Shown here piece after piece: positions 15,142-32,000 of a DNA stretch of 32,000 bases (positions are counted from its first letter, which is position 1; the number at the start of each line of letters is the position of its first letter). The DNA lies in assembly GCF_900232105.1 (NCBI RefSeq), contig NZ_LT934425.1, positions 660,001 to 692,000 on the forward strand. Direction: 5' to 3'. The translations under genes were made by a program, and so were the position numbers. Source of the DNA: Candidatus Kuenenia stuttgartensis. GTDB taxonomy: Bacteria > Planctomycetota > Brocadiia > Brocadiales > Brocadiaceae. Below the pieces are notes generated by a model, which was not told the origin of the DNA, did not search any database, and saw only the letters and a program-made list of their open reading frames with translations.

Positions 15142-15178
15142 TAATAAGACATTTTAGGAGTCTGGTATTTTTTATTAT

Positions 15179-15208
15179 CCAGTCGGCAATCGGCAGATTG
15201 CCGACTGG
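15179..15208. terminator. Perfect 12-bp stem / 6-nt loop hairpin downstream of the aldolase gene (possible terminator or attenuator)
   Basis: CCAGTCGGCAAT-cggcag-ATTGCCGACTGG. A T-run precedes rather than follows it on the plus strand, so it is not a textbook intrinsic terminator. Confidence 0.35.
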
Positions 15209-15290
15209 ATACTGCGCACGGTAGCGCGCAAACCCACCATTTCACAATGTACATCCTGCGTTATAACGACCATAAGAAAAGGGGCATTAT

Positions 15291-16310
15291 ATGCGAGTAG
15301 CAATGTATTACAACAACAATGACGTCAGAATAGAAGAAATGCCAACTCCACAAATAGGGCCGGGCGAGTTATTGGTAAAAATATTCGCAAGCGGTATATG
15401 TGGCAGCGATGTAATGGAATGGTACCGCATTAAAAAGGCGCCTTTGGTTTTGGGTCACGAAATTGCAGGAGAAATAGTCGCCATTGGCGATGCCGTTAAA
15501 CAATTTAAAGTTGGCGACAGAGTTACCGTTGCACACCATGTTCCATGCAACACCTGCCATTATTGCCTGAATGGACATCATTCCGTGTGCGATACTTTAC
15601 GCACTACCAATTTTTATCCCGGTGGTTTTGCAGAATTTCTGCGTGTTCCACAAATCAATGTTGATCGCGGAACTTTTATTCTTCCCCAGGAGATGTCTTA
15701 TGATGAGGGAACCTTTGTAGAACCTTTGGCATGTTCAATTCGCGGACAACGACTGTCCAATTTTAAACCCGGACAAAGTCTGCTCGTTATCGGCAGCGGC
15801 ATATCGGGATTATTACATATTCAATTGGCGAGAGCGCTTGGCGCAGGCAAAATATTTGCAACGGACATAAACGAATATCGCCTGAAATTTGCAAAAAAAA
15901 TAGGGGCAGATATCGCAATTAACGCAAAAGAAGATGTGCCTTCCATTATCCGCAAAGATAATAATGGAAGATTGGCAGATTTGGCGATTGTGTGTACAGG
16001 AGCAATATCCGCAACAGAACAGGCCTTTCATTCCATAGAAAGGGGAGGGACTATCCTCTTTTTTGCACCAACGGAACCCGGGGTAAAAATCCCTATTGAC
16101 CTATGGAATCTTTGGCGTAATTGTAATTCTATTGTTATGTCCTATGCTGGCCCTCCTGCTGATATGGCGGTTGCAATTGAATTAATACGGACAGGTAGAA
16201 TTGCCGTAAATGATCTGATAACTCATAAACTACCGCTAAATGACGCTGCAAAGGGATTTAAACTGGTAGCCGACGCAAAGGAATCCGTGAAAGTAATTAT
16301 AGCGCCCTAA
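15291..16310 (+). CDS. Zinc-dependent medium-chain dehydrogenase/reductase (threonine/sorbitol dehydrogenase-like)
   Basis: Catalytic zinc motif GHEIAGEIVAIGDAV, structural zinc Cys cluster CNTCHYCLNGHHSVC, Rossmann motif VIGSGISG. Confidence 0.9.
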   Translation: MRVAMYYNNNDVRIEEMPTPQIGPGELLVKIFASGICGSDVMEWYRIKKAPLVLGHEIAGEIVAIGDAVKQFKVGDRVTVAHHVPCNTCHYCLNGHHSVCDTLRTTNFYPGGFAEFLRVPQINVDRGTFILPQEMSYDEGTFVEPLACSIRGQRLSNFKPGQSLLVIGSGISGLLHIQLARALGAGKIFATDINEYRLKFAKKIGADIAINAKEDVPSIIRKDNNGRLADLAIVCTGAISATEQAFHSIERGGTILFFAPTEPGVKIPIDLWNLWRNCNSIVMSYAGPPADMAVAIELIRTGRIAVNDLITHKLPLNDAAKGFKLVADAKESVKVIIAP

Positions 16311-16460
16311 AAGTAAACCAGTTTAAAATCGATAATCACCAGTAGGCAGTCGTACAAGATTACAGACTGGAGATTGAGTATTGAGTACCTCTGATCGCAC
16401 CATTAAAAATTTTGGAAAAACGTGCGAAGAAATAACTTTTACGGTACTAAGAAGGGATAA

Positions 16461-17549
16461 TTAATCAATAACCAGACTAATGCGCTTGTGCATTTGAGCA
16501 GTTTGCGAGAGACCGGAAACGTTTTCTTTTATATCCTGTTGATCAGGCTGTATGGATAATGACTTTTCCCACATTTTCCGCGCCTTTGCAGGATTATTCG
16601 TCACTTTGTAACAATTCCCCAGTAAATTATACAGCGGCACAGCTTCATCCCCGACTTTGTTCTCCGACCAAAGAGAATCAACAAAATCTGTCGCTTCCTT
16701 TGTTCTCACATACTCTTCTAAAATGTGAACCGCATCATCATATTTCTGTTGTTTATAATAAAGTCTTCCAAGGTTATAATATGCGTCTAAATATGCTGTA
16801 TCCAACCGGATTGCCATTACAAAAAATGATTCGGCCTGTTTATCAAAATCCGTTTTTAAGCAACACTCGCCAAGCAGATTATAGGCCTCTGCGTTATTCG
16901 TGTCTTCCAGCACCGCTTCCCTGAGATGGTGCATTGCCCGAGGATAATCTTCTTCTCCCTTGTATACAATGCCAAGCAAGTAATGCACCTCGTAATTGGC
17001 AATCTCTTTTTTCATAAAATAGAGCAAAATCCCCTTCGCTTTTGAAATTTCATTGCTTTTTATCAGCAGTTTTGAGATATTCACCGCGGCAGAAGTACTA
17101 TCCGGCTGCAATCTCAATGATTCGGCAAAAAACGCTTTAGCGTCCTCTTCATTACCGTTTTTAGCGCAACATATTCCCATAAGATTATACGTATCCGCAT
17201 CTTCCGGATTCGCCACTACAACCTCCTTAAAATGCGAAAGAGCCATACTGTATTCTTCCCGGTCCATATACAGAAAAGCAAGGTTATAATGAACGTCTAT
17301 TAAATCAAAATCAATGTGTAATGCTTGCCTGAAATTTTCAATTGCTTCGGAATAGTTATGGTTTCTTGTGTAATAAATACCGAGAAGATTAAAACCCTCT
17401 GCGTAATTGGGGTCTGCATCCACTGCTGCTTTTAGATATTTAAACGCCATACCCCAATCATCTTTTTCTATCAGGTCCTTCGCGCGCGAAACATTTATTT
17501 CAAAATCTGTATTGCCATTTAGAGCGCTGCTTTCTTCAACAATAAACAT
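16461..17549 (-). CDS. Tetratricopeptide (TPR) repeat protein
   Basis: 362 aa with repeated 34-aa A-x-x-[YF]-x-x-[AL]...P...A...LG units (AEGFNLLGIYY, ADTYNLMGICC, AEAYNLLGECC, and others). Last gene of the flagellar-strand cluster. Confidence 0.85.
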   Translation of the reverse strand: MFIVEESSALNGNTDFEINVSRAKDLIEKDDWGMAFKYLKAAVDADPNYAEGFNLLGIYYTRNHNYSEAIENFRQALHIDFDLIDVHYNLAFLYMDREEYSMALSHFKEVVVANPEDADTYNLMGICCAKNGNEEDAKAFFAESLRLQPDSTSAAVNISKLLIKSNEISKAKGILLYFMKKEIANYEVHYLLGIVYKGEEDYPRAMHHLREAVLEDTNNAEAYNLLGECCLKTDFDKQAESFFVMAIRLDTAYLDAYYNLGRLYYKQQKYDDAVHILEEYVRTKEATDFVDSLWSENKVGDEAVPLYNLLGNCYKVTNNPAKARKMWEKSLSIQPDQQDIKENVSGLSQTAQMHKRISLVID

Positions 17550-17627
17550 GGTTAGTTTCCTTTAAATTAAGAGATATTCCTGTAAAATACGCAAAATAAT
17601 TACCTCAAACTGTACCACAGTGCACAA

Positions 17628-17921
17628 TTAATCTGCGTCTTCAACTGCCTCCCTTTTTGCTATAAATTTTTCTTGAAAACGAAAATCCTCTCCAATATGC
17701 CTCCATTTTTGCGCAACTTTTACCAACTCATTTTTGGATACTTTTGAAGACTCTCTATTCTGGGATTGGATTTTTTCATAAACTTCTTCCCTGTGAATCT
17801 CAATGTCCTTTGGAGCGATAATTCCCAATTTCACCTGTCTTCCCTGAAATTCTAAAACGGTAATTTTTATCTCATCACCTATGGTTATGCTTTCTCCCAA
17901 CTTCCTTGTTAGTATAAGCAT
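17628..17921 (-). CDS. csrA: Carbon storage regulator CsrA (flagellar-type, paired with FliW), with a long C-terminal extension
   Basis: [51 protein letters not shown] is a near-consensus CsrA core. GAGGAG SD lies 7 nt upstream of the ATG at 17921. The tracked ORF start (18026) adds 35 non-homologous residues. Confidence 0.9.
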
Positions 17922-18160
17922 CGCTTCTCCTCTATTGAAAGTGTATAAAAATAACGTACCGTGCAGTAAACGTATATCTCTTTCCCCAAGACCTTTTTGA
18001 AGAACAAAGAAAGAAACTGGCTGCAAATAATAGAATACTATTCGTATTAAACTGCCTGTAAGCGTCCGGGCAGAGGCGCATCATAGTAAAGCAATGCGTC
18101 TGCATCTCATAATAACATTTATTATGGTTGTGCACCCGAACAACGCAGGGGTATATTCAA

Positions 18161-18610
18161 TTAAGCATTTTTTTGCACAAGCGGATAATGTAATGCGTAA
18201 TAATCATCTGTTAATACGAATTGCTTCCCCTTGTTGTTTATCATATTTACAAGTATAGGCCCTTTCAGGTTTATGGTTACATTGGAAGCATCATCTCCAA
18301 TGTTTACTATACAAAATATTTCAACCTTTTCCTTGTTGCCCATCTCCAACGCTGAAACATCATCAATCTTTTTCAATGGGTCATAGTCGGTGAAAAGAGG
18401 AACCGGGTTTATGACGGGTAACGCAACAAGGGGGTTATCAACCGAAACCAACCATTCAAAAGGCCGGCAGTCAGGAAAATTAACAAGAATGAACTGTTTA
18501 AGCTCTTCGTACCCTACAATGCCGTCTTCAAACCTGATAATATCTTCTTTGTTATAACCTAACTCACCCAACTTTTCCGTTTTTAATGTCTCCATTTTCT
18601 TCTGCTCCAT
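18161..18610 (-). CDS. fliW: Flagellar assembly factor FliW
   Basis: 149 aa. IRFEDGIVGYEELKQFILV, FEWLVSVDNPLVALPVINP and NLKGPILVN are typical FliW segments. Located between flgL and csrA, as in many flagellar loci. Confidence 0.85.
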   Translation of the reverse strand: MEQKKMETLKTEKLGELGYNKEDIIRFEDGIVGYEELKQFILVNFPDCRPFEWLVSVDNPLVALPVINPVPLFTDYDPLKKIDDVSALEMGNKEKVEIFCIVNIGDDASNVTINLKGPILVNMINNKGKQFVLTDDYYALHYPLVQKNA

Positions 18611-18873
18611 TTTTGTTTTTACCTCCTATAAAAAATAAGGTTAAAGAGATTTATATGCTACGTGGCGGTTAATTAAGCAAACACAATACCATTTGTAAAC
18701 AAGTAAAATCAATAACCACACAAAGCCGCTTATGTAATTGTGAGAATAGGAGTTATAAAACTTTAAAATAACGATAGGCTCTGTAGCAACAAGGGATGAG
18801 ATTTTTTACTTTGGAGAGAGTACGGGCAATAACGTTGAAATTATTTACCCATGATGTTGATAATTTAGACAAT

Positions 18874-19791
18874 CTATCCGCCAATAAAATCTAGCAATGA
18901 CGGCTGAATAATCCTGGCGCCGGTCTGCAGTGCTGCTTGCAGCACATTTTCCTGATTTTTTAATTCTGTGATTAAGGATGCTAAATCAGCATCTTCGGTA
19001 TAAGAGATTAATTCTTTCAGCGCTATTTTCGAGTTTTCGACTCTATTTTCCGTTATTGCCAATCTATCGACTTTTGCGCCAAACTTTGTAATCTCTGTCA
19101 GTACGTTATTATTTGCCGTTTCAAAATTTTTCTTCTGTGATAAAAAAGCGTCTGTATCAAAATCGCTTTTTTTCAATTCGTCGCGTAAATTTATAAGATT
19201 TGCAAATATGCCGTTTTCCATAAACAGCTTTCCGCCAGGCTGGTTCACTTGTATAAATGTATTGCTCCCTATCTGATATTGTATTGTTTCATTATTGCCA
19301 TCATACTTTACGCCTGTTATCTCACCGCCTGAATCTCTTGTCGCTCTGAAGGGGGCAGTTAAGGTTTTTGTTCCCGAGAAAAGATACCGTCCGTTGCTAT
19401 CCGTTATGTTTGAGAATTGAATAATTGTCTCCATTAACTCATCAATCTCGCTTGCAATAATTCCCCTTTCACTATCCCCAAGCGTACCATCCGCCGCCTG
19501 CACCGTTTTGGTCTGAATCTTCACCATAATGTCCTGTATGTTTTCCAATGCATCGAAGATGAAGTTTATTTTATCTCTCGCATGTTTAATAGCGTCTAAA
19601 TATTGCTGTAATTCATTTTCCCCGGATTTAAATCCAAGTAATTTTCTCGTGCTTACAGGATCATCTGATGCGCGGTTTATCTGCTTACCGCTGGAAAGCT
19701 TTTCCTGTATCTCCTGCATTTTCTTGTAATTTAGCTGGATGTTAGAAAGCGTCGTATTACTTAAACTCGCCTGCGTAACTCTAAAAGACAT
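18874..19791 (-). CDS. flgL: Flagellar hook-associated protein 3 (FlgL)
   Basis: Flagellin-like N-terminal helix (MSFRVTQASLSNTTLSNIQLNYKKMQEIQEKLSSGKQINRASDDP) and C-terminal helix (LKNQENVLQAALQTGARIIQPSLLDFI). Follows flgK. ATG 19791 lies 8 nt downstream of GGAGG; the tracked GTG start lies inside that SD. Confidence 0.85.
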   Translation of the reverse strand: MSFRVTQASLSNTTLSNIQLNYKKMQEIQEKLSSGKQINRASDDPVSTRKLLGFKSGENELQQYLDAIKHARDKINFIFDALENIQDIMVKIQTKTVQAADGTLGDSERGIIASEIDELMETIIQFSNITDSNGRYLFSGTKTLTAPFRATRDSGGEITGVKYDGNNETIQYQIGSNTFIQVNQPGGKLFMENGIFANLINLRDELKKSDFDTDAFLSQKKNFETANNNVLTEITKFGAKVDRLAITENRVENSKIALKELISYTEDADLASLITELKNQENVLQAALQTGARIIQPSLLDFIGG

Positions 19792-19874
19792 GGCGTCATC
19801 CTCCACAACTCATTAAAATTATTCTACCGGTGTCCCGCATTTCACTTTAGTACGAAAGACCACTCAACCCGCCG

Positions 19875-21845
19875 TTACAATGAATTTAATAAGGTATTTA
19901 TTAATCTGTCAACGGTTGATATATATTTTGCCGACGCCTGATACGCCTGTTGAAATCGTATCAGGGTAACCAGTTCTTCATCAATATTTACCCCGGAAAC
20001 CTCTTCTCTTCTGTTCTGAAGACTCCCCTCCAATGCCGTATACTTCTCCTCAGACTTATATGCACTATTCGCCTCTTCTCCTAATGCCGCGGCAATTTGA
20101 TGTAAATAATCAGATAAGGTAGTATTTCCAACAATACTGTTATCATTTTGTAATGCGGATAAACGCAAGGCATTTGTATTATCCCCTGATTCACCTATAG
20201 ATGTTGCAATTAGTGTTACATCCTCCCGTATCCTTTTTTCAATATTAATATCCGAAGCATCTTTACCGCTAAAAAAAGTATTAATTCCCAAAGCAGCAAG
20301 CAAGTCAGTTTCATCAGAATCATTTATAACATCTATATCAAATGTATCTCCTGTATTAATATCACCTGCCGAAAACGAGACAGAAACACCATTTGCAACC
20401 GCAAGGGTATTGCCAGGAGTATATCCTTCACCTACATCAAGTGTAGCAATAAGATTTGAACCGCTATCCCTGACTTCAACCTGAAGACCTGACGTAGTCC
20501 CTATTGTGCCGCCTGCCCCTAAAGCTGTGAATGTATATACATCATTTGTACTTCCATTGTATATACCCGAAATTGAAGGCGTTGTTGTTCCTGTAATTCC
20601 AGTGGTTTGAGGATTCGGGTCCAATGCATAAGAAAAATTAAATTTATACCCGGAGTCTGCGGTAATCTGCAATTTGCCGTCTGAAATAGCAGAGGAAAGA
20701 TTTGTTATCCCATCAATATCAGCGCTTAATTTTGTAAGCGAATCATTTGCTACATCCACCGTAATTTTGTTTTTGACCTCTTCCCCTGTACTCGTATTTA
20801 TTACCGTAACATATATATCTCCGCTCGATGGTGCAAAAGGCAGCCCCAGACCCGCAGTATTCAATGCCTTAGTTGCGTCCGTCACCTTATTTGTCCCAAG
20901 TACCGTTGTAAACCCGCCGTCTGTGCCTACGCCTTCACTATGAATCGCATTAAATTTCTTTATAAGCGCGGTTGCAAAGGTATCCAGTTTAGCATCGTAT
21001 GCAGGCAACGTGTTGTTATACATCTCCAACAAACCGCTCAATTCACCGCCAGTAGGTTTGTGTTTCGAACTTCCATAGCTGGTAATATTGAGCTTGCCAC
21101 TTGAATCTACGCTGGATTCAAGGGTTAACGCATTTGAACCACTCACCAGGACTCCACCTGCAATCATCACATCTATCATGCCGTTCTTCTGCGTCCTTGT
21201 TGTGACGTCCAAAAACTTGCTGATTTCGCCGAGGAGCGTCTCTCTTTTGTCCAACAGGTCATTCGGCTCCCCGCCTGTTGTTTGCAGCGAGTGGATTTCC
21301 TTATTAAGGTCAACGATATCTTTCGCCAGCCCGTTTACTTCATTAAGTTTGGATTCCACGGATTGTTTGACAAATTCCTTCATCATGCCCAGCTCGTCAA
21401 CTATTGCACGTATGGATTCGGTCATGGTAATCGCCTTTTCCACAAGCACAGAGCGTGAACTGGTACTCTCGTCCTGCGAAAGGTCGTTCACAAATTTAAA
21501 GAAGCTTGTCAAGGAATTGCTTATACTGGCATCGCTTAATTCGTTAAATACCGTTTCAAGTTCTCTCAATTGCTGACTTTTTATAGAGGAGGCGCCAAGC
21601 GATGAAGTGACAAACCTGATCCGGCTATTAAGGTAGTCATCCTTCTGCCGCATTATTTTCACCAGGTCAACGCCCTGCCCGATAGAACCGATAGTCGTCT
21701 GCAAGGGTAGTCTTGTTGCAAGACTGACCGTTTGTTTCGTATATCCTTTTGTATTTGCATTCGATATGTTATGTGCGGAAACCATCATTGCACGCTGCGC
21801 CGCAAGAACTCCGCTCATACCAATTTGTATATCTGACGAGGCCAT
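19875..21845 (-). CDS. flgK: Flagellar hook-associated protein 1 (FlgK)
   Basis: N-terminal rod/hook signature GMSGVLAAQRAMMVSAHNISNANTKGYTKQ, C-terminal LIRFQQAYQASAKYISTVDRLINTLLN, and a large Thr/Gly/Ser-rich variable middle region. Confidence 0.9.
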   Translation of the reverse strand: MASSDIQIGMSGVLAAQRAMMVSAHNISNANTKGYTKQTVSLATRLPLQTTIGSIGQGVDLVKIMRQKDDYLNSRIRFVTSSLGASSIKSQQLRELETVFNELSDASISNSLTSFFKFVNDLSQDESTSSRSVLVEKAITMTESIRAIVDELGMMKEFVKQSVESKLNEVNGLAKDIVDLNKEIHSLQTTGGEPNDLLDKRETLLGEISKFLDVTTRTQKNGMIDVMIAGGVLVSGSNALTLESSVDSSGKLNITSYGSSKHKPTGGELSGLLEMYNNTLPAYDAKLDTFATALIKKFNAIHSEGVGTDGGFTTVLGTNKVTDATKALNTAGLGLPFAPSSGDIYVTVINTSTGEEVKNKITVDVANDSLTKLSADIDGITNLSSAISDGKLQITADSGYKFNFSYALDPNPQTTGITGTTTPSISGIYNGSTNDVYTFTALGAGGTIGTTSGLQVEVRDSGSNLIATLDVGEGYTPGNTLAVANGVSVSFSAGDINTGDTFDIDVINDSDETDLLAALGINTFFSGKDASDINIEKRIREDVTLIATSIGESGDNTNALRLSALQNDNSIVGNTTLSDYLHQIAAALGEEANSAYKSEEKYTALEGSLQNRREEVSGVNIDEELVTLIRFQQAYQASAKYISTVDRLINTLLNSL

Positions 21846-23388: not shown

Positions 23389-26289
23389 ATGGATGATCGT
23401 TTTCCAACGAATGGAAATGGAGTGGAAAGTCAATCCACTTTAAAAATCCGGTTAGAAAACCTATTGGAAAAGGAAGCAATGATACACAATGCATTTTCCT
23501 CAAGCAGAACGGAACTGTTTGTGGGCAGGCAAAGATATTTTGACCGGCTGGATGAACACATACACGGGGATACTCCCCCACTCATTGTAACCGGCAAACC
23601 GGGGATGGGGAAATCAGCGCTTCTTGCAAATTGGAGAAAACGCTATATCTCCTTAAATCCTGCCAACAAAACCATAATACATTTCATCGGCATTTCACCC
23701 CGCACAAGCAGTTTAGCATCTATGCAGCTACGCATTATCCATGAATTAACCTATGGATTTAACCTTCCTCCGGATATTCCCACTAATCAGAACGACCTCA
23801 ACGTCGCATTTGTCAATGCCCTTTTCATGTCCGCTGCAAAAGGCAAAGCGGTTATTATTCTGGACGGTATCGAACGATTGGAGGGAAGAGACCCCGCACA
23901 AGTCTTATCATGGCTCCCAATTGAAGTGCCTGCGAACATACGGTTTATTTTGTCCGTATCGCCCGGAACCGTATTTGATGTTGTTGCAAAACGTAACTGG
24001 CCTGTTCTTGAAGTAGCACCTCTTGAAGTTGTTGAGCGAAAACAATGTATTCACGCATATCTCCAGAATACTCATTCAACAGCATTAAGCGAAAACCATA
24101 TAAATACAATCGTCCATGCCGTCCAAACATCCAACCCGCTCTACCTTGATATACTCATGGGGGAATTATGTATTGACGACGCCCCCTCCATTGCCGGACA
24201 AAAAATAAGCCGGTATCTCTCCGCACAAAATATTGAGGAACTCATTCTCAGGGTTATTGAACGATACGAACTCGATGATACACTGAACGGCGCTGATGCG
24301 TCATTTTTCCGGAATATCATGTCATTGTTGTTAAGCGCAGGAAACGGACTCATGGAAAATGAAATAAACGAACTGCTCCGTGGGGAAACACCGTCACCGC
24401 AAAATACGCCATTAAAAACCTTGCTACCAAATATGAAACATATCCTGATACAACATTCAAATCTCATTCTTTATAAACACAATGCCTTTCATGATGCGAT
24501 AAAAAGCAGGTATCTCTCAGAAGAAGATGAGAAAAGGCGGTTTCATTTACGTCTTGCAGATTATTTCGGGAAAAACTATTCGAGTCAGCGCGCAATTGAA
24601 GAATTTCCGTGGCAACTGACTCAGGCAAGGTCATGGAATCAGTTATTCGGACTTCTCTCTGATATATCCTTTTTCAATGTCTTGTATGAAACAAGCGCTT
24701 ATGCGGCAACGTATTATTGGTCGCAATTGGAAGAAAACTCTCAAATGCGCATTCCATACGCATATTGCACCATTTTAGAGTCCCCGGAGAATTATATTGA
24801 CCGCATTAAAAACCTTTCCTTTTTTTTAAAGGAGAAAAACCTCCTTACAGAGGCATTGAAGATGTTTGAACATCTTGTCTGTTATTATGAACAAAACAAG
24901 GACTACGAAAATCTGCCCGTAGCCGTCGGAATACTTGCAGATATCCTTTACGAAAGGGGCGGCATGGAAGAATCCATGCAATTACACAAGGATGAAGAAC
25001 ACATTTACCGGAGCGTTGGAAATAATTACGGATTAATGCGCTCCTTGTCACGTCAGGCAGTTATTGCCCTTGCCAACGATGATTTGGAGAACTCCCTACA
25101 TCTCTTCAGGCAGGAAGAACAACTCTGCCGTGAATTGAACGATACTTATCGGCTGTCGTATAATCTTAACAAACAGGCGGAAATACTGTCTCTCCGGCAC
25201 AAAACCACCCTTGCCGCAAAACTGCTTACGGAAGCGGAATCTATCAGCCGCGGCATAGGTGATATGTCAGGATTATCCGTGTGTTTAGGCAACAAAGCCC
25301 GCATAAAAAAGGGTTCCGGAAATCCGGAAGAGGCGATGACCTTTCTGAAAGAACAGGAGCATCTTTGCCGCACCCTGGGAAATAGCAAGGAACTCTCCGT
25401 CTGCCTTGGAAATCAATCGCTTATTCTTACCACCCTTGGAGACCTTGATGGCGCATTCGTTTTACTGAAAGAAGAGGAATCTCTCTGCAAAAACATGCGC
25501 AACGAACACGGGCTATCCTATAACATCGGGAACAGGGCAAATATCCTTTCGATACGCGGTAATCTTGCAGAGGCACTGGAATTATATAAAGAACAATTCT
25601 CACTATTCAAAAAGACACTAAACAAACACGGACTATCATACAATCTAGGCAACCAGGCAAACATTCATTATTCACTGGGAAATGCAGAGGAAGCAATGTC
25701 GTTCTACACGGAACAGGAGCGTTTATGCAGGGAACTGGAAAATGAGGACGGATTATCCTATGCACTCGGTAATCAGGCGATCATTCTTGCGGAAAAAGGC
25801 GACCCTGATAAAGCAATGGAATTGCATAAAGAAGAAGAGCGCATTTGCAGGAAATTTAACAATATGGAAGGATTGCAACGCTCTCTGGGCAACCAGGCAA
25901 GTATATTGTATAGCAAGGGTCATTTGCATGAGGCGCTCGCCCTCCATAAAGAAGAAGAGCGTCTATGCAGAAAACTTGGAAACAAGAGCGAACTTTCAGC
26001 CTGCCTTGGTAACCAGGCGCTTGTCGTTAAGGATCTGGGGAATCCGGATGAGGCGATTGGACTATTAAAAGAACAGGAAGCTATTTGCAGAGATCTTGGG
26101 ATAAAGAGCGGGCTTGCTATTTCATTGGCAAATCAGGCAGAGATGCTTGCGCAAAATCCGGGACGGGCAGATGAAGCACTGCCTCTTGCCGAAGAAGCCT
26201 ATTCAATTACCACTTCTTTCGGTTTTCAGTCATTATCTCACGAAATAGAACCCATTTTACGCGCAATTGAATCCCGATTGGGCAAATAG
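23389..26289 (+). CDS. STAND-class (NACHT-like) P-loop NTPase with a C-terminal array of about eleven 40-aa TPR units; no recognisable effector domain
   Basis: Pre-NTPase FVGRQRYFDRLDEHI, Walker A GKPGMGKS (aa 69-76), Walker B AVIILDG (aa 154-160), followed by a helical/winged-helix-like region. From about aa 500 there are repeating units of the form L(S)xxLGNQAxILxxxGxxxEAxxLxKEEExLCRxLxNxxG. Confidence 0.85.
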   Translation: MDDRFPTNGNGVESQSTLKIRLENLLEKEAMIHNAFSSSRTELFVGRQRYFDRLDEHIHGDTPPLIVTGKPGMGKSALLANWRKRYISLNPANKTIIHFIGISPRTSSLASMQLRIIHELTYGFNLPPDIPTNQNDLNVAFVNALFMSAAKGKAVIILDGIERLEGRDPAQVLSWLPIEVPANIRFILSVSPGTVFDVVAKRNWPVLEVAPLEVVERKQCIHAYLQNTHSTALSENHINTIVHAVQTSNPLYLDILMGELCIDDAPSIAGQKISRYLSAQNIEELILRVIERYELDDTLNGADASFFRNIMSLLLSAGNGLMENEINELLRGETPSPQNTPLKTLLPNMKHILIQHSNLILYKHNAFHDAIKSRYLSEEDEKRRFHLRLADYFGKNYSSQRAIEEFPWQLTQARSWNQLFGLLSDISFFNVLYETSAYAATYYWSQLEENSQMRIPYAYCTILESPENYIDRIKNLSFFLKEKNLLTEALKMFEHLVCYYEQNKDYENLPVAVGILADILYERGGMEESMQLHKDEEHIYRSVGNNYGLMRSLSRQAVIALANDDLENSLHLFRQEEQLCRELNDTYRLSYNLNKQAEILSLRHKTTLAAKLLTEAESISRGIGDMSGLSVCLGNKARIKKGSGNPEEAMTFLKEQEHLCRTLGNSKELSVCLGNQSLILTTLGDLDGAFVLLKEEESLCKNMRNEHGLSYNIGNRANILSIRGNLAEALELYKEQFSLFKKTLNKHGLSYNLGNQANIHYSLGNAEEAMSFYTEQERLCRELENEDGLSYALGNQAIILAEKGDPDKAMELHKEEERICRKFNNMEGLQRSLGNQASILYSKGHLHEALALHKEEERLCRKLGNKSELSACLGNQALVVKDLGNPDEAIGLLKEQEAICRDLGIKSGLAISLANQAEMLAQNPGRADEALPLAEEAYSITTSFGFQSLSHEIEPILRAIESRLGK

Positions 26290-26290
26290 A

Positions 26291-26428
26291 GTAAAACTAT
26301 TCAGCGTAATCTATCAAAGGGAATATGCCCTGTTTTTGTGCAGGAGGTAAGAATAGATAATAGATTCGAGGGGAGCATTCCCGGTTTTTTGTAAAAATGC
26401 CATTAGCGGGGAGGGAAAGAATAGTAAC
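26291..26428. repeat. Degenerate relative (or solo end) of the 27499-27658 MITE
   Basis: GTAAAACTATTCAGCGTAAT at 26291-26310 matches the MITE terminus GTAACTATTCAGCGTAAT apart from a 2-nt insertion. GAATAGTAAC at 26419-26428 resembles the opposite terminus. No target duplication seen. Starts 2 nt after the NTPase stop codon. Confidence 0.35.
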
Positions 26429-26637
26429 TCAAGCTTCCAGCTTGAGGGTAAAATACCACGAGCAGTCATCATGTTGCATTTGCAACACCCAGAAACGATG
26501 AAAATGATTTTATAACCATATCGTGTTGCGGTACCTGTGCTTGAGCTATTTCTTGTAGTCTTTTTTCGAGCCAGGATGCTTGTGTTACAAAGTACAATTA
26601 GTTAACCAAAAATCTGGAATGCTCCTGTTCAAATTAT

Positions 26638-26778
26638 GTCCCCCGCTGGCGGGGGTGCAGGGGGTGGACTGGATTTCTCCATCGATTCAACTACCCCTTC
26701 ATTATGAAAACAAATTTGCCCCTTTTCCCCGCGCTCCGCAGACAATTCCACCCCCTTAATCCCCCGCCAGCGGGGGAC
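26638..26778. repeat. 141-bp inverted-repeat element with terminal arms of about 31 nt, each arm containing its own hairpin
   Basis: 26638-26668 reads GTCCCCCGCTGGCGGGGG-tgca-GGGGGTGGA. The reverse complement of 26747-26778 reads GTCCCCCGCTGGCGGGGG-attaa-GGGGGTGGA. That is 18 + 9 identical nt. The core CCCCCGC-TGG-CGGGGG is itself palindromic. Confidence 0.6.
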
Positions 26779-27197
26779 AGGCTTGCCACCTCCTTTGCAG
26801 CTTTCATGCCCTTGTGGGGTTGATCCATGTGCATTCCAGGTTTTTTATTACTTCTGCCATGTTTTAATGAAACGTACAATAGTATTAACCACTGGCAGCG
26901 TTGTTTTGCCCCAATCACACATACGGTTACAAAAAATCGGGAATGCTCCTGAGTAGATAGTAGACAGTGCCCGTCCCTCATTCCACCGTTGTGCAGAGAC
27001 GCACTGTATTGTGTACAAGCTACCAGCCTCTTGAGTTAACACCTTTAGCAAACTTATGGTTGGTGCAATCTTTTAAATTGATACAGTGCAGTTATTTTTC
27101 AAAACACAATTCCGGTAAAATAATTTTCAATTCAATGCCTATCAGACAGGAGAGCCTTTTTCGTTTGACAAAAGCCTTCAAATGGATGATGCCGAAA

Positions 27198-27367
27198 CCC
27201 GCAGGCGGAGGGTCTTACACCATTGCCCTGAAGTTTGATGGGACGGCCCATGCATGGAGATATAATACTTATGGTGAATTGGGGACGGGACGACCACGCA
27301 GAGCGCTACACCGATACAGGCAAGCAATCTCCTCTTAAAACCGGCAATACCAACAGCAACCACTTGA
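27198..27367 (+). pseudogene. RCC1-like repeat gene fragment (frameshifted 3' end)
   Basis: AGGGSYTIALKFDGTAHAWRYNTYGELG, then after a 1-nt frame slip DGTTTQSATPIQASNL...*. This matches the RCC1 blade pattern (htlALksDGtvwaWGyNsyGqLGdGtt..r.tPvqv). No upstream continuation. The junction with the integrase remnant (27305-27365) is ambiguous. Confidence 0.4.
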
Positions 27368-27878
27368 CAATAAGCTGAGGAGAGCCTTCAATATAATTTA
27401 TTATTTGACGAACCTCTTCACGGGTCATGACTACTGGAATATTCGTCTTCTTCTGTGCACGTATAGCGTTAATCTCTTCTTTTAATGATACTTTTAAAGT
27501 AACTATTCAGCGTAATTTCTTTAACTACCATATATGACAAAAAAGGCCAAAATCACAGATATTATCCAGAAGTTGTATTGCTATATATAGACAAGAAGCG
27601 TAAATTAATGGGTTTTTGCCATATATTGTACTTTTACTCAAACACGCTGAATAGTTACCTTTTAAAACCTTCTTATACAAAAATACAAGTGCGTTCATAG
27701 CCTGGTTTTGGGTAGAAGGGGCAACGCAAGATTTCACGGCAAGGTGGGTCAAAAATTGTTCTATTTTTTCTTCACCGTCCATTAAATCCTCTTGACTGGT
27801 CATTCGGTGGTATTGAATATAGCCAAACAAATATGATTTTAGGAATTTGGCAATAAAATGGCTTTCTAAAAAACAGAT
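27309..27878 (-). pseudogene. Integron-integrase-like tyrosine recombinase, N-terminal remnant (truncated, MITE-disrupted)
   Basis: EEKIEQFLTHLAVKSCVAPSTQNQAMNALVFLYKKVLK | (MITE) | VSLKEEINAIRAQKKTNIPVVMTREEVRQIINYIEGSPQLIVK closely follows the IntI N-terminal pattern (FLtHLA....vsasTqNQAlsAllFLYreVL...l..i.rakr...lPvVlTreEv..ll..l.g...l...LLYGtG). The catalytic C-terminal two thirds are absent. Confidence 0.7.
27499..27658. mobile_element. 160-bp MITE inserted in the integrase gene
   Basis: Perfect 15-bp terminal inverted repeats GTAACTATTCAGCGT (27499-27513 and the reverse complement of 27644-27658). They are flanked by an 8-bp direct duplication CTTTTAAA (27491-27498 and 27659-27666). 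AT-rich non-coding interior. Removing the element plus one duplication restores a continuous integrase reading frame (..FLYKKVLKVSLKEEINAIRAQ..). Confidence 0.85.
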
Positions 27879-28082
27879 TTATTTGACTAAGCATACTATA
27901 CAAGCACGCCCCTTAATTCCCTCTTTATAGAGAGGACTGGGAGGTGTAAATTTTTCGAAAACCTTATTTGTTTGACTATATATCATTTGATTCAATCACA
28001 GTATGATCGTTCTGTATGGAGGGAATAATGCTTAAGCCTCATTATATCTTTTACTTTATTTGGCAACCCCCCCCTTTTTTGA

Positions 28083-28110
28083 TTGACATCCTTTTCTCCT
28101 ATTCTATACT
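28083..28110 (+). promoter_or_regulatory. Sigma-70-type promoter candidate directed at the cassette-like array
   Basis: TTGACA (28083-28088), 16-nt spacer, TATACT (28105-28110), 134 nt upstream of the ATG at 28244. Two inverted repeats lie in the putative leader: CCTGATAA/TTATCAGG (28164-28195) and ATTGATT/AATCAAT (28199-28217). Confidence 0.5.
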
Positions 28111-28243
28111 GTGTACGAAATAAAATTATAAGGTAATTTTTAAAATACAACACAATAATTTTACCTGATAATAGTACTTTTCCCTAGTTATCAGGGCAAT
28201 TGATTGTGATAATCAATGGTTATCCAATATTTGGAGTTACGAC

Positions 28244-29416
28244 ATGAATGCCAACGCTCAAACAGGAGACACTCAAGACGCTGCTCGCTTGCGTGCGCTT
28301 CTTTCTCAGCTCAATTGGCTAAACGCCCTCAACGACGAGCCCGCCAACGGGGTTTACGAGTATCAGTTCCATTCGGACGCTCACATCACTGGTGAATTCA
28401 CGTCGGGCTTAGGCCCCTATAGCTTTCTCAATACAGTGCCAATACCTGATACGCCGGGAATCGTAACTGCACCAATCATTCTACGTTTGGTTGATCATCT
28501 TCCTGAATATCGACCGGACATGTCAAAAAAGGACGAGACGTTTTATCACGGTGGGACGATGGTTGATGAACTTGCGGCACTATCATCACTGTGCATCGGT
28601 GCTCGAATTATGGCGGGCGGCGAATCGCGGCGATTTGAACCCGGCAAGGATCCAATGGGACGGCCCTGCGCATGGGATTACAAACCAGCGCCATTCCTTC
28701 GTGTACGACCTGGGCGCTATGTTCTTCCTTCCATCACTGGCACCCATTCACTCGATAATCTTAACATGCTGAAGTCAATTCCCAAGATATCACCGGAGAG
28801 GTATGTCAATCTCATCCGGTCCTGCATTGCATATCAGGATGCTCTTTGGGCTGCTGAATCGGAGCCTCATCTTGCTTGGTTGCTGTTCGTATCTGCTCTT
28901 GAAACTGCGGCAAACGACATCTATCTGTCGGATAGATCTCCAGCCGAACGCCTGAAAGATGCGAAGCCAGACGTGGCAACCATTCTTGATGAAGCGGGCG
29001 GCCATCAATTGGTCGAGAAGATTGCCAAACTGATTGCGCCTTCTTTGGGTGCCACAAAGAAATTTCTGGACTTCACCCTAAATTTCGGACCGAACGAGCC
29101 AACTGATCGGCCGGATCAAGAATGGCTGCGCGTGAAATGGTCGAAGACCAACCTCAAGCATACTCTCAGCAAAGTTTACAATTACCGATCTCGCTCACTG
29201 CACGGTGGTTTACCGTTCCCAGCTCCAATGTACGATCCACCTTTCTATTTCGATCGTAAGTCAAAGCCATCTGAGGTCCCACTAACTGGCCTCGCATCAC
29301 ATTCACGCGGCGGTACGTGGTTGCCTGAGGATATGCCAGTAAATCTACATTGTTTTCACTACATCACACGTGAGACCTTGATTAATTGGTGGCGTAATTT
29401 AGCGAATGAGAGATAA
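28244..29416 (+). CDS. Orphan 390-aa protein; C-terminal helical region with an Rx4H (HEPN-like) motif
   Basis: Long ORF with a GGAG SD 8 nt upstream, visibly more G+C-rich than its neighbours. The C-terminal half is helical (ERYVNLIRSCIAYQDALWAAE, LAWLLFVSALETAANDIY, LKHTLSKVYNYRSRSLHGG, NLHCFHYITRETLINWWRNL) with R315-x4-H320 encoded at 29186-29203. I recognise no family for the N-terminal 180 aa. The confidence value applies to the CDS call. The functional guess is far weaker. Confidence 0.8.
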   Translation: MNANAQTGDTQDAARLRALLSQLNWLNALNDEPANGVYEYQFHSDAHITGEFTSGLGPYSFLNTVPIPDTPGIVTAPIILRLVDHLPEYRPDMSKKDETFYHGGTMVDELAALSSLCIGARIMAGGESRRFEPGKDPMGRPCAWDYKPAPFLRVRPGRYVLPSITGTHSLDNLNMLKSIPKISPERYVNLIRSCIAYQDALWAAESEPHLAWLLFVSALETAANDIYLSDRSPAERLKDAKPDVATILDEAGGHQLVEKIAKLIAPSLGATKKFLDFTLNFGPNEPTDRPDQEWLRVKWSKTNLKHTLSKVYNYRSRSLHGGLPFPAPMYDPPFYFDRKSKPSEVPLTGLASHSRGGTWLPEDMPVNLHCFHYITRETLINWWRNLANER

Positions 29417-29422
29417 CAAAAT

Positions 29423-29457
29423 CTTCAACCGGACGCATAAAGCCGCGCCGGTTAAGG
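29423..29457 (+). other. attC-like or terminator-like hairpin 7 nt after the orphan ORF stop
   Basis: CTTCAACCGG-ACGC-ataaagcc-GCG-CCGGTTAAGG. The outer arms resemble R'' (RYYYAAC) and R' (GTTRRRY) and share TTCAACC...GGTTAA with the site at 30666-30722. At 35 bp it is shorter than canonical attC sites. Confidence 0.4.
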
Positions 29458-29920
29458 GCTTGGGTTTGGATAATAGGGTGAGATTAATCGAAATACCGTT
29501 GACGCACCGCAAACGAGTTACAGACCTACCGGAATTAACAGGTCAAGGACACACTTCCCAGTGCTTGTGTGTGTGCAGTAAGGAAACAAGTCGCTAACGT
29601 ACCTGCACGAAATCGTAGAACTGCCGGTATTCAGGTATCACCTAAGTTATCCAATGGTCAATTATGCAGAACGGGGGAATACTGTCATTTCGCCATATAC
29701 AACACCATGGCAGGTCAACTGCAAGGCAGGCTGATGAAAGGGCAGTACTGAGAAGTTGGAAAAAGCAAATGTCATTCTATAATGGCGTGAATAGGGTATG
29801 AAACATGACTTGACTCTAAAAGGTCGGGAATCAAACTTTTCGATTCTGAAAGGAATGCCTACTTCCAACAGGTGTTTCATTGCGGGAAAATTGAAAGAAT
29901 ATTCGGAGGCAGGAACGCAA

Positions 29921-30142
29921 ATGACGGGAATCAATCCTGGTGCTCTTCCCGATGATGCAATAACGTGGCATACCATAAATTGGGATGCTGCAAGGCGTCA
30001 CGTCAGAAGACTGCAAATGCGTATCGCAAAGGCTGTAAAGGAAGGAAGACCAGGCAAGGTGAAAGCTTTGCAATGGCTCCTTACCCACTCTTTCCACGCC
30101 AAGCTCCTGGCTGTTAAAAGAGTGACCTCAAAATCGAGGTAA
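29921..30142 (+). pseudogene. Group II intron reverse transcriptase/maturase, N-terminal 73-aa fragment
   Basis: [70 protein letters not shown] matches the conserved N-terminus of bacterial intron-encoded proteins (W..i.W......V..LQ.RI.kA...g...kvk.Lq.lLt.S...kllAv.rVt). GGAGG SD upstream. After a frame slip (..NRGKTV) the ORF joins directly to the extreme C-terminal/domain V region, so RT domains 1-7, X and En are deleted. Confidence 0.7.
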
Positions 30143-30184
30143 AACAGTCTGGTTGTCCTACAAGGGCAGCTTATTGAAATACTT

Positions 30185-30218
30185 GAGCTGTATGGTGGGA
30201 AACTATCACGTACAGTTC
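30185..30218 (+). ncRNA. Group II intron domain V
   Basis: GAGCTGTATGGTGG-GAAA-CTATCACGTACAGTTC is 34 nt, with the AGC catalytic triad, a 2-nt CG bulge on the 3' strand and a GAAA (GNRA) tetraloop. A U-A pair replaces the usual C-G at position 5/30 (compensatory change). Confidence 0.85.
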
Positions 30219-30273
30219 TTAGGAGGGTATCGGGCAGCAATGCCCGTGACCTATCCGATTCCGTTGAAAGGAA

Positions 30274-30317
30274 GTGAGGACGACCTCACCGCTCCAATAT
30301 ACATAGGGGACGACCTC
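30274..30317 (+). promoter_or_regulatory. Guanidine-II (mini-ykkC) riboswitch
   Basis: Two tandem hairpins, each with an ACGA loop closed by GG/CC: GTGAGG-ACGA-CCTCAC (30274-30289) and GGGG-ACGA-CCTC (30306-30317), separated by a 16-nt linker. They sit just upstream of the GAAGG SD and the ATG of an SMR/SugE gene, the classic genetic context of this riboswitch class. Confidence 0.8.
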
Positions 30318-30338
30318 AGCATTTGTGAAGGCAAATAT

Positions 30339-30659
30339 ATGGCGTGGATCATTCTTGTTATTGCGGGACTGTTTGAGACTGGCTGGGCGATCGGGTTGAA
30401 GTACACCGAGGGGTTCACCCGATTGTGGCCTACGGTCTGGACAGTCTTGGCGATGATTATCAGTCTTTGGTTACTGGGCATTGCCTTGAAGTCGCTTCCG
30501 ATTGGCACCGCTTACGCCATTTTGGTAGGAGTTGGAACCGTCGGAACCGTTGCGCTAGGCATCGTACTGTTTGGAGAATCTACGAATACTGCCCGGCTCA
30601 TCAGCATTGCTCTGATTATTGCCGGTATCGTCGGGCTTAAGCTTGCGACACCGGCCTAA
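30339..30659 (+). CDS. sugE: SMR-family guanidinium exporter (SugE/Gdx)
   Basis: 106 aa, four TM helices. [31 protein letters not shown]...[27 protein letters not shown] includes the essential membrane Glu in TM1 and the SugE-type KYTEGF motif. I reject the tracked 30153 start because its first 62 codons are intron domain V/VI plus the riboswitch. Confidence 0.92.
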
Positions 30660-30665
30660 CAACGT

Positions 30666-30722
30666 GTTCAACCCTGACGAGCAAAAACATCGCTTCTCTC
30701 TGCTTTTGCTAGTCGGTTAATA
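30666..30722 (+). other. attC-like recombination-site candidate (57 bp)
   Basis: R''-like GTTCAAC (30666-30672, a perfect RYYYAAC) and R'-like GTTAATA (30716-30722). Folds as TT-C-AACC-ct-GAC-g-AGCAAAA...TTTTGCT-a-GTC-GGTT-AA, with the unpaired bases on the 5' arm only, as in attC sites. Starts 7 nt after the sugE stop. Confidence 0.5.
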
Positions 30723-30813
30723 TGAACATTACCCCAAAAAACAATACTTCTATTATTCATGTGACGTGCTATACTAATAAAAACAATAACCTTGAATTTG
30801 AGGGAAGAACAGT

Positions 30814-31014
30814 ATGTCAACTGTAAGCAAAATCAAAGAAGCGATAGAAACCCTTCCAGAAAATGAGTATGTCCAATTGAGGCAGTGGTTTTTGGAAAAA
30901 GACTGGGAAAAATGGGATAATCAGATTTTAGCGGATTCAGAAGCAGGAACGCTGGATCCCCTGATCAAGGAAGCCTTTGAAGAAAAATCGAAGGGAAAGC
31001 TTAAAGAACTATAA
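30814..31014 (+). CDS. Type II antitoxin (small helical, C-terminal toxin-wrapping type)
   Basis: 66 aa. The IKEAIETLPENEYVQLRQWF...WDNQILADSEAGTLDPLIKEAFEE pattern is common in antitoxins paired with RelE/ParE-superfamily toxins. GAGGGA SD upstream. Its stop is fused to the next ATG (TAAATG). An extended -10 (TGCTATACT) lies upstream. Confidence 0.6.
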   Translation: MSTVSKIKEAIETLPENEYVQLRQWFLEKDWEKWDNQILADSEAGTLDPLIKEAFEEKSKGKLKEL

Positions 31015-31275
31015 ATGCATCGGACAACAAATCGATCCTGAAAATATTTTGAGAATCTTCCACCACTTGTTCAAAAGAGAGCTAAGAAGAATTTTGAGCT
31101 TCTCAAAAAGAACCATTCGCATCCATCTCTTCATTTTAAAAAAGTTGGAGAGCTTTGGTCAGCCAGAGTCGGAATGAATCATAGGACACTTTCTGTTGAA
31201 AATGGTAAAGATTATATTTGGGTTTGGATAGGTACTCACGATGAGTACGAGTGTATGATTAATAAAAAGGTCTAA
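31015..31275 (+). pseudogene. RelE/ParE-superfamily-like toxin with an in-frame TGA at codon 9
   Basis: MHRTTNRS*KYFENLPPLVQKRAKKNFELLKKNHSHPSLHFKKVGELWSARVGMNHRTLSVENGKDYIWVWIGTHDEYECMINKKV*. The segment ..nP.hPsL..KK....lWsaRv...yRal....g....W.WIGtHdeY is a recurring small-toxin pattern. The stop at 31039-31041 is the only defect, and there is no alternative start before M at 31174. Confidence 0.6.
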
Positions 31276-31285
31276 CAAGCGCATT

Positions 31286-31379
31286 AAGCTAACCACCAAT
31301 ACTATATGCGATTTAATATTTATTGAGGCTGCCGCTTCAAGCCTTTCTTGCAAGCATTACGTACAGGCGGTGGTTGCTT
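31286..31379 (+). other. attC-like imperfect hairpin (94 bp) after the TA module
   Basis: Outer arms AAGC-T-AACCACC (31286-31297) and GGTGGTTGCTT (31369-31379) pair, leaving one extrahelical T. They contain AAC...GTT at the expected R''/R' positions. GTCTAAC (a perfect RYYYAAC) also overlaps the toxin stop at 31270-31276. The interior is only partly self-complementary. Confidence 0.4.
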
Positions 31380-31436
31380 ATACGAGACATCAGCAGCAAG
31401 TATTGGCAATAAATCAATCTGTACATCGGGGTTAAT

Positions 31437-31913
31437 ATGAGTGGAATAAAAGATATATCCGACCGAATGGGGCGAGTTGTTTATGGCCTAATTAGTTTAA
31501 GCCTAGGGCTTATAAGTTTCGCAATGATGGTGGTTGCCTTATGGGGCATTTGGGTCTCAGTACACGAAAAAACCCTTCTTGAGAAAGCTCTTCTTGATGC
31601 AATTGGTTTGATTGTGATTGGAATGGCAGTCTTTGATGTTTCCAAGTTTTTGGCGGAGGAAGAGGTCTTTAACAGTGGTGGCGCGAAATCGCCCACAAAA
31701 CAGAGAGAGAGCTTATTAAAGTTTCTCGCCATCATTGCCATCGCTGTAAGTCTGGAAGCCCTGGTGTTCATTTTTGATGCCGGGAAAAAAGAAATTAGTA
31801 GTTTGATTTATCCAACATTTTTGTTAATCGCTGCGGTTTCGGTGGTGGTCGGTCTTGGTGTGTATCAAAAACTGACTCGGAATGATGGGGATTCATCGCA
31901 AAACAACCTATAG
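31437..31913 (+). CDS. Small integral membrane protein (4 predicted TM helices), function unknown
   Basis: 158 aa with four hydrophobic helices (VVYGLISLSLGLISFAMMVVALWGIWV; AIGLIVIGMAVF; FLAIIAIAVSLEALVFIF; PTFLLIAAVSVVVGLGVY). No family recognised by eye. Confidence 0.6.
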   Translation: MSGIKDISDRMGRVVYGLISLSLGLISFAMMVVALWGIWVSVHEKTLLEKALLDAIGLIVIGMAVFDVSKFLAEEEVFNSGGAKSPTKQRESLLKFLAIIAIAVSLEALVFIFDAGKKEISSLIYPTFLLIAAVSVVVGLGVYQKLTRNDGDSSQNNL

Positions 31914-32000
31914 TCGCGATGACAGTTCGAATGTAACGGTAGCGTATTTTTGTAGATGGTATATGTTCGATGTTTAAGAGCAAATGCATGGCTACTAACA

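Follow-up and report, generated by a model that had tools for sequence, protein, structure and literature searches.

Integrons consist of an integrase gene (intI), a recombination site (attI) with the cassette promoter (Pc), and cassettes that end in attC sites, in which the boxes are arranged as R''-L''...L'-R' and extrahelical bases are present. For Xanthomonas, Gillings et al. are said to have described in 2005 chromosomal integrons in which intI was inactivated and the cassette arrays were fixed. A class with clusters of attC sites lacking integron integrases ('CALIN') or with pseudo-intI is recognised by the program IntegronFinder (Cury et al. 2016, PMC4889954). Published group IIC-attC introns such as S.ma.I2 have the bottom strand at R'' (TTGT/T) as their insertion site and are oriented opposite to the cassettes (PMC3001079; PMC7923331); in the literature consulted, attC introns with the orientation of the cassettes occur as isolated oddities only (PMC7923331). 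Here a stretch of 32,000 nucleotides of Candidatus (Ca.) Kuenenia stuttgartiensis (contig NZ_LT934425.1, positions 660,001 to 692,000 of the forward strand; hereafter the window) was analysed, in which positions 27306-32000 very probably represent the intI-proximal part of a sedentary chromosomal integron with a dead intI. The stretch is 100% identical to OCTL01000098.1 (GCA_900232175.1) and 99.5% identical to CP049055.1 across the region common to both. The latter is Ca. K. stuttgartiensis CSTR1 (PMC7709395), and the comparative-genomics paper on CSTR1 contains no mention of integrons, integrases or group II introns (PMC7709395).

The integron platform itself belongs to a known kind, the chromosomal integron with an inactivated integrase. 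An earlier note on this DNA had proposed a decayed sedentary integron with a truncated integrase hit by miniature inverted-repeat transposable elements (MITEs) and with a co-oriented array, and this proposal was supported by the IntI profile, by the attC model and by the turnover of cassettes in relatives. Beyond routine annotation, the locus offers a riboswitch-bearing cassette, a HEPN-like candidate defence protein and a sense-oriented, attC-targeting lineage of group II introns. The platform comprises the following features, given with window coordinates:

27306-28089, minus strand: intI pseudogene, N-terminal ~140 codons only, with the start codon ATG at 28089-28087
27499-27658, no strand assigned: MITE-like insertion 1 in intI, 160 bp, with the terminal inverted repeat GTAACTATTCAGCGT (I7) and the 8-bp target duplication CTTTTAAA
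27822-27976, no strand assigned: MITE-like insertion 2 in intI, 155 bp, with the inverted repeat GCCAAACAAATA/TATTTGTTTGAC (I2) and the target duplication TATA
28083-28110, plus strand: predicted Pc-like cassette promoter TTGACA-16-TATACT, 11/12 match
28150-28225, plus strand: attI region with TTATC/GATAA repeats (inverted repeat I8) and the crossover between G at 28219 and TT at 28220

The minus-strand remnant, which had been noticed earlier as a dead intI-like gene, matched PF13495 in Pfam with E 1.3e-12. For the profile search the two inserted elements were removed and the frames were joined, and the resulting composite of 141 aa was matched by the NCBIfam integron-integrase model TIGR02249 with 127.8 bits (E 5.5e-37; profile positions 4-125 of 315), versus 26 bits for XerD and 32 bits for archaeal XerA, so that the remnant groups with IntI and not with XerC/D. 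The lesions comprise a frameshift in a run of eight G at 28068-75 (six-frame translation), in-frame stops near 27990 and the loss of the catalytic domain beyond ~27306-27357, after about residue 140; together with the two insertions they agree with the earlier description of the gene as truncated and MITE-hit. Insertion 1 is missing from the orthologous intI genes of three relatives (loci L022, L023 and L024), and insertion 2 has an empty site in L024. No second copy of either insertion was found in the ~90 kb of Kuenenia DNA searched, and both are therefore called MITE-like only.

Relatives of the integrase remnant were collected by a scan of a genome collection, which gave 80 loci. The closest orthologues are ~91% identical, have intact frames and belong to metagenome-assembled genomes (L022 and L023, the latter from Brocadiaceae). 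The L023 orthologue of 325 aa reached 442.9 bits against TIGR02249 (cut-off 265), and the IntI-specific segment ALERKY..W.WQYLFP..DPRSG..RRHH is present in both orthologues. By comparison with these intact, high-scoring proteins and their IntI-specific segment, the intI of the window is the dead descendant of a genuine integron integrase. A different origin could be considered because the surviving part is only the N-terminal SAM-like domain, which is found in other tyrosine recombinases too (PF13495); the locus would then be no integron and would consist of the remnant of a phage integrase or of the integrase of an integrative and conjugative element, beside a genomic island with genes ending in hairpins by chance. 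Such an origin is given next to no chance, since the IntI family model exceeded XerD by 100 bits, the orthologues are intact IntI proteins, the attC matches are confined to the array in a single orientation and the attI boundary is located exactly at G|TT.

In Kuenenia sp. Bin_40 (L024), the intI pseudogene carries a (TATG)n microsatellite near its 5' end (L024 ~9990-10025) as well as frameshifts and reaches to about residue 250. As these lesions and this extent differ from those in the window, the routes of integrase decay appear to be partly independent in the two Kuenenia species. Joined to the truncated end of intI, the plus strand at 27190-27330 resembles by eye an RCC1-type repeat, TIALKFDGTAHAWRYNTYGELGTG; this reading of ~27190-27330 was not confirmed by Pfam, which gave no match.

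A near-consensus promoter pointing away from intI, as claimed before, is present at 28083-28110. It is the best sigma-70 match within 27900-32000, where the count of promoter-like sites was not above that of shuffled sequences (9 vs 7.3). The -35 box and the intI start codon, which is on the opposite strand, overlap. The promoter is kept at the same place in Kuenenia sp. Bin_40, there as TTGACA-16-TATAAT, and is partly kept in L022. Downstream of it, the homology with L024 ends exactly at 28219|28220 (...GATAATCAATGG|TTAAGC), and the homology with L022 ends at the same position (...GATAATCAAGCG|TTAGCA). Cassette 1 of the window begins with six bases, TTATCC, that are complementary to its own R'', and the same complementarity exists for the first cassette of Kuenenia sp. 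Bin_40, as is expected of once-circular cassettes.

For the detection of attC sites, covariance models were used. Model R1 was built from seven class 1 attC sites of clinical plasmid integrons, namely those of aac(6')-29a, blaVIM-2, arr-3, aac(6')-Ib, dfrA5, aadB and aadA2; variable loops were trimmed, and the R''/R' and L''/L' pairs were encoded. It was searched with filters off on both strands of the window and of two Kuenenia loci, 73.6 kb altogether. Model R2 is R1 minus the spacer and R', and model R3 was built from 45 attC sites of relatives' arrays. Following attI, the array contains four functionally unrelated plus-strand units, all of which had been listed by the earlier note: a 390-aa open reading frame (ORF), a guanidine-II riboswitch with a small multidrug resistance (SMR) gene, an antitoxin/ParE-like pair, and a 158-aa membrane ORF. 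They are arranged with an intron remnant as follows:

28220-29456, plus strand: cassette 1, with the 390-aa ORF (28244-29416) and a 3'-truncated attC (29411-29456) that has R'' AGATAAC and L''/L' and no R'
29448-30259, plus strand: group II intron remnant, with an RVT_N ORF at 29798-30142 and domains V-VI at 30183-30259 (RF00029, 57.5 bits)
30260-30734, plus strand: cassette 2, with the riboswitch at 30272-30318 (RF01068), the SMR/SugE-type gene at 30339-30659 (PF00893, E 1e-27) and a degenerate attC-like site at 30654-30734
30735-31395, plus strand: cassette 3, with the gene of a 66-aa antitoxin at 30814-31014, a ParE-like toxin pseudogene at 31015-31275 (PF24732, E 6.5e-8) and a degenerate attC-like site at 31270-31395
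31396-32000, plus strand: cassette 4, with the 158-aa membrane ORF at 31437-31913 and the start of an attC matched by R1 and R3 (R'' TACTAAC at 31993-31999, site to 32052)

In the 73.6 kb, the R1 matches were confined to the array and to the plus strand, with weaker reverse-strand echoes of two sites. Four sites were found in the sister strain locus L009 (50.8, 47.4, 41.8 and 20.6 bits) and two downstream of the window in the K. stuttgartiensis locus L001 (30.1 and 19.6 bits). The first of the latter, L001 10557-10616 (30.1 bits, E 1e-5; R3 26.7 bits), corresponds to window positions 31993-32052, and only its R'' is therefore inside the window. Within the window, R1 matched 29411-29465 with 18.2 bits (E 0.024), and R2 matched 29411-29456 with 30.1 bits (E 3.7e-5; R3 24.8 bits). 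In the 81 loci with IntI relatives, 63 attC sites were found by R1 (E <=0.1), each of them (63/63) on the strand opposite intI and nearly all upstream of it. This arrangement is the classical integron layout and the same as in the window.

The earlier note had based its array on three hairpins with arms AAC..GTT, and these sequences were indeed present at the coordinates given. The arms had been taken as R''/R' and the G|TT positions 29451, 30716 and 31373 as crossover points; both assignments had to be revised. In all three hairpins the arms are the inner L''/L' boxes, and for this reason the three positions are not crossover points. The R'' heptamers are located ~12 nt upstream of the arms, on the stop codons of the genes (AGATAAC at 29411-17, GCCTAAC at 30654-60 and GTCTAAC at 31270-76), and each is followed by a ~5-nt spacer. 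At site 1 the stem has the geometry of aadA2/blaVIM-2, with 3 bp, a single extra base, 6 bp and an extra A, and the extra bases C and A on the 5' arm correspond to bulged G and T in the bottom strand. Site 1 is a genuine attC from which the R' end has been lost. The proposed check with an attC covariance model, here one built from class 1 sites, came out in favour of the truncated site at 29411-29456, whereas hairpins 2 (30666-30722) and 3 (31286-31379) gave no full-length match with R1 or R2 and at most 12.8 bits. The extrahelical bases, a check of which had also been suggested, were found at site 1; the stem of site 3 resembles it except that the first extra base is a T and the pairing is imperfect, and site 2 is irregular beyond the first extra base.

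With the broader model R3, site 2 was matched at 30654-30734 with 13.7 bits (E 0.44 over 147 kb, 0.005 in an 851-nt search) and site 3 at 31270-31395 with 11.0 bits (E 2.3 over 147 kb, 0.026 in the 851-nt search). After the accepted sites, these were the next-best full-length plus-strand R3 matches in the window, and they were placed at the predicted coordinates. The R' positions read ATTACCC at site 2 and ATCAGCA at site 3, by which the crossover G is replaced by A at both. In comparison with shuffled sequences, the fold of hairpin 2 was more stable (z ~-3.2) and that of hairpin 3 was not (z -1.2 to -1.6). Sites 2 and 3 are probably degenerate attCs, and they are called degenerate candidates here and not attC because R1 and R2 gave no full-length match and R3 alone supports them. 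It is somewhat unlikely that the two hairpins never were attC sites and are ordinary 3' hairpins or terminators, units 2 to 4 then forming a single composite cassette with the attC at 31993 as its end. The missing R1 and R2 matches would be consistent with such a composite cassette, as would the fold of hairpin 3, which is no better than that of shuffled sequence, and a terminator-like hairpin at 31323-31340 inside hairpin 3. It does not account for the fact that both genes end in a stop-containing RYYYAAC (GCCTAAC and GTCTAAC) followed by a 5-nt spacer, nor for the local R3 E-values exactly at the predicted positions; furthermore, the stem of hairpin 3 has the canonical succession of 3 bp, bulge, 6 bp and bulge (that of hairpin 2 is irregular past the first bulge), and in L022 a homologue of the toxin-antitoxin unit forms a cassette by itself. 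Both sites are accordingly treated below as probable degenerate attCs.

The locus was compared with that of the sister species Kuenenia sp. Bin_40, which is syntenic on both sides, with flagellar genes and a STAND NTPase gene on one side and genes for a methyltransferase, RNase HII and asd on the other. Bin_40 has its own intI pseudogene and shares attI, promoter and last (HigA-like) cassette with K. stuttgartiensis. Between attI and this last cassette, ~3.4 kb of different cassettes are present from G|TT on, each with its own attC; they contain two small ORFs, an N6/N4 methylase with an HNH nuclease, and HigB/HigA. Cassette-wise variation in relatives bounded at G|TT had been suggested as a check, and between species the turnover does begin at the G|TT of attI, whereas within the species no attC-bounded differences were seen.

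The K. stuttgartiensis assemblies fall into two forms. In the long form, represented by L003 (CSTR1) and L009, an extra 8.17 kb is present between the cassettes of the 390-aa protein and sugE. The extra block contains a 5'-truncated C5 methylase gene with a 333-aa ORF, a 76-aa cassette, a 73-aa cassette, a group II intron interrupted by an insertion sequence (IS) element, a DUF2281-PIN pair and four strong attCs. It is flanked by two 339-bp intron segments that are 96.8% identical to each other. The single 339-bp copy in the window is identical to copy 1 at 11/11 diagnostic positions and then continues into the flank of copy 2. As judged from these positions and this junction, the strain difference arose by homologous recombination between the intron copies and not by IntI. 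The pattern of single-nucleotide polymorphisms gives no direction, deletion or insertion, for the 8.17 kb event. The idea that the cassettes are frozen in place is thus to be qualified: the array is nearly fixed within the species and intI is dead, but strains differ by a multi-cassette block of 8.17 kb.

A further strain-specific difference is a 760-bp MITE insertion with the target duplication CCAAGCCGG at L001 12986-13744. It is constituted by copies related to a MITE-like cluster at 26372-26951 in the window, between the STAND gene and the intI remnant, which has terminal repeats of the type GGAGCATTCCCGGTTTTTTGTAAA and includes a GC-rich palindromic element at 26637-26779. The neighbouring STAND gene itself (966 aa, AAA_16/NACHT-like with TPR, 23389-26289) is unstable between strains, with a 1002-bp tandem duplication in L009 (5526-7831) and the insertion of a DDE transposase in L005 (1261-3144).

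An array that still works could be imagined if the attC cluster were served in trans by an intact IntI encoded elsewhere in the genome, so that cassettes would be excisable and capturable. Canonical R''/R' boxes and good scores at 31993-32052, at L001 12744-12805 and at the four L009 sites would suit this, and in a published IntI tree the K. stuttgartiensis intI falls into a different clade, for which reason a second integrase gene may exist (PMC3607928). We regard such an array as quite improbable: only two array forms occur among about ten assemblies and metagenome contigs of K. stuttgartiensis, these forms differ by a block bounded by intron repeats and not by single cassettes at G|TT, and of the four attCs with their start in the window, three are truncated or mutated at the crossover base. 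Several points nevertheless weigh against the identification of the locus as an integron with a dead intI. The attC covariance models were built in-house and calibrated in a shortened run; two of the three hairpin sites fail the independent models and reach 11-14 bits with the broader R3; the strain differences within K. stuttgartiensis are not located at attC boundaries; the intI of the window is without its catalytic domain, so that the IntI-specific insertion is not visible in this copy; and the Pc-like promoter at 28083-28110 is predicted from a sequence match only.

The intron remnant lacks the first ~185 nt of the intron and most of the reverse transcriptase (PF13655, E 6e-22), and its part 29448-29786 corresponds to the 339-bp repeat found on either side of the 8.17 kb block in the sister strains. 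The right arm of hairpin 1 overlaps the start of the intron fragment at 29448, an element not listed in the earlier note. As the sequence from CCGGTTAAG (29448) on belongs to the interior of a group II intron, which retains its 5' end in L009 (19530-19714; RF02012, 92.1 bits), a deletion at the 9-nt microhomology CCGGTTAAG joined the attC to the intron. In L009, introns at 14575-18826 and 19530-20524 are oriented like the cassettes and directly follow the R' (GTTATTG|GCGAC and GTTGTTT|GTGAC) of attCs that end at 14574 and 19529. Related introns in two IntI loci have the same orientation and position (L027 ~1-213 and L098 ~6-827, both minus strand), the one in L098 being located directly after the core heptamer of attI itself. 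By a metagenome scan with a signature of the 5' part of the intron, at least 81 copies were found (L108-L187 among them), in which the 5' exons end in GTTRRRY or GTTRRRYN. On the contigs of the intron copies listed, 119 attC sites were detected with R3; 50 of the 81 copies listed start 0-3 nt after a same-strand attC, and among the matches listed attC and intron are co-oriented in 124/124 pairs.

The remnant at 29448-30259 is thus tentatively assigned, with a confidence slightly short of even, to a widespread and hardly described group II intron lineage that homes to the top strand of integron core sites (attC and at least one attI), the repeated copies of which would drive block recombination once the integrase is dead. 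The lineage was recorded by matches to RF02012, RF00029, RVT_N, RVT_1 and GIIM and was set apart from the group IIC-attC introns by target and orientation. Because of the top-strand insertion after R', its introns would share transcripts with the cassettes and would move along with the following cassette as its 5' end. Such a sense-oriented lineage that targets attC appears to have taken over the remodelling of the array and would, if confirmed, alter the textbook view that integron-associated group II introns insert against cassette transcription.

The 390-aa protein of cassette 1 had been regarded as an orphan, which did not hold, as 297 homologues with 47-85% identity were found in Planctomycetes, Deltaproteobacteria and other groups. 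A motif R315-x4-H320 is invariant in 16/16 aligned homologues, down to 47% identity, and UniRef gives one homologue the name 'Apea-like HEPN'. The C-terminal half is predicted to be helical, with a predicted local distance difference test (pLDDT) of 70-90, and the AlphaFold model is poor at residues 1-180. The protein had no match in Pfam, NCBIfam or PADLOC, and Foldseek matched no PDB structure below E = 3. As the profile and fold searches were without a significant match, the HEPN identity suggested by the HEPN-like motif is a lead only. A homologue in the metagenome contig L104 (1823-7173) is encoded directly downstream of a pair of genes for a Gabija-like OLD-type ATPase and a UvrD helicase, an arrangement that recurs on contig L105, and a further homologue is located in an attC array of Novipirellula with a restriction-gene neighbourhood (L106, 5166-9911). 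The 390-aa protein is a candidate defence or toxin gene product.

In cassette 2, the guanidine-II (mini-ykkC) riboswitch (RF01068, 45.4 bits versus a gathering score of 32) is positioned 20 nt upstream of the SMR gene, so that the cassette brings its own ligand-responsive control and does not depend on Pc alone. The toxin-antitoxin pair that the earlier note listed is present in cassette 3; its ParE-like toxin gene, however, carries an in-frame TGA at 31039 in place of W9. This change of W9 to a stop was confirmed by a homologue in L022, in which the toxin-antitoxin unit is intact and located between two strong attCs (64% identity by translated comparison). In both toxin-antitoxin pairs of the array the toxin is inactivated and the antitoxin intact (31015-31275; L001 12356-12693). 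Downstream of the window, the aldehyde-dehydrogenase cassette of K. stuttgartiensis is fused to the last 25 nt of higB and hence to the higA cassette; as shown by the comparison with L024, this fusion took away one attC and the toxin.

The integrase family of the remnant, the boundary at attI, the attC sites, the synteny and the lesions are shown by the comparisons above; from them we infer two phases, in which earlier IntI activity, promoter function and the sequence of events are all reconstructed. As long as the integrase worked, IntI would have put circular cassettes into attI at G|TT (28219|28220), and the divergent promoter at 28083-28110 would have transcribed the inserted cassettes. 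After the loss of the integrase, a deletion at the CCGGTTAAG microhomology would have taken the 3' end of the first attC together with the 5' end of the group II intron, and the R' cores of the next two attCs would have been altered by point mutation. The ParE-like toxin gene would have acquired its nonsense mutation, the higB toxin gene further downstream would have been deleted, and MITE-like elements would have been inserted. Finally, the 8.17 kb cassette block would have been gained or lost between strains via homologous recombination of the two 339-bp intron segments.

The locus is a well-resolved fossil integron in an anammox bacterium used in wastewater treatment, and fossil chromosomal integrons as such are already known. 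In common with the Xanthomonas and CALIN integrons, it has a fixed chromosomal position shared by related species, an intI wrecked by frameshifts, stop codons, insertions and a deletion, co-oriented unrelated cassettes rich in toxin-antitoxin and restriction-modification genes, and cassettes that vary between species and are nearly fixed within one. It differs from them in its host, an anammox planctomycete, in that several of its attCs are degraded or fused, and in the co-oriented group II introns, through recombination of which the strains differ. The pattern of decay is one in which toxin genes are the first to go, attC cores are mutated at the crossover base and cassettes are fused.

With the class 1 integron, the locus shares the divergent arrangement of intI and promoter, the crossover at G|TT, an SMR gene among the cargo and a common attC geometry of R'', 5-nt spacer, 3 bp, bulge, 6 bp, bulge A ... 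R', the class 1 model R1 reaching up to 50.8 bits at Kuenenia sites. Unlike a class 1 integron, the Kuenenia integron is sedentary and without a transposon carrier, its integrase is dead, and its cargo is environmental (a guanidine exporter type under riboswitch control, toxin-antitoxin and HEPN-like genes) instead of conferring antibiotic resistance. With the group IIC-attC introns, the Kuenenia lineage has in common that its DNA target is the attC stem-loop of integrons, that truncated or ORF-less copies are found within arrays, and that the protein (as encoded by the other L009 intron, the window keeping RVT_N only) comprises RVT_N, RVT_1 and maturase domains and lacks an endonuclease domain. 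Unlike them, the introns of the Kuenenia lineage are inserted on the top strand, in the orientation of the cassettes, 0-1 nt after the R' heptamer.

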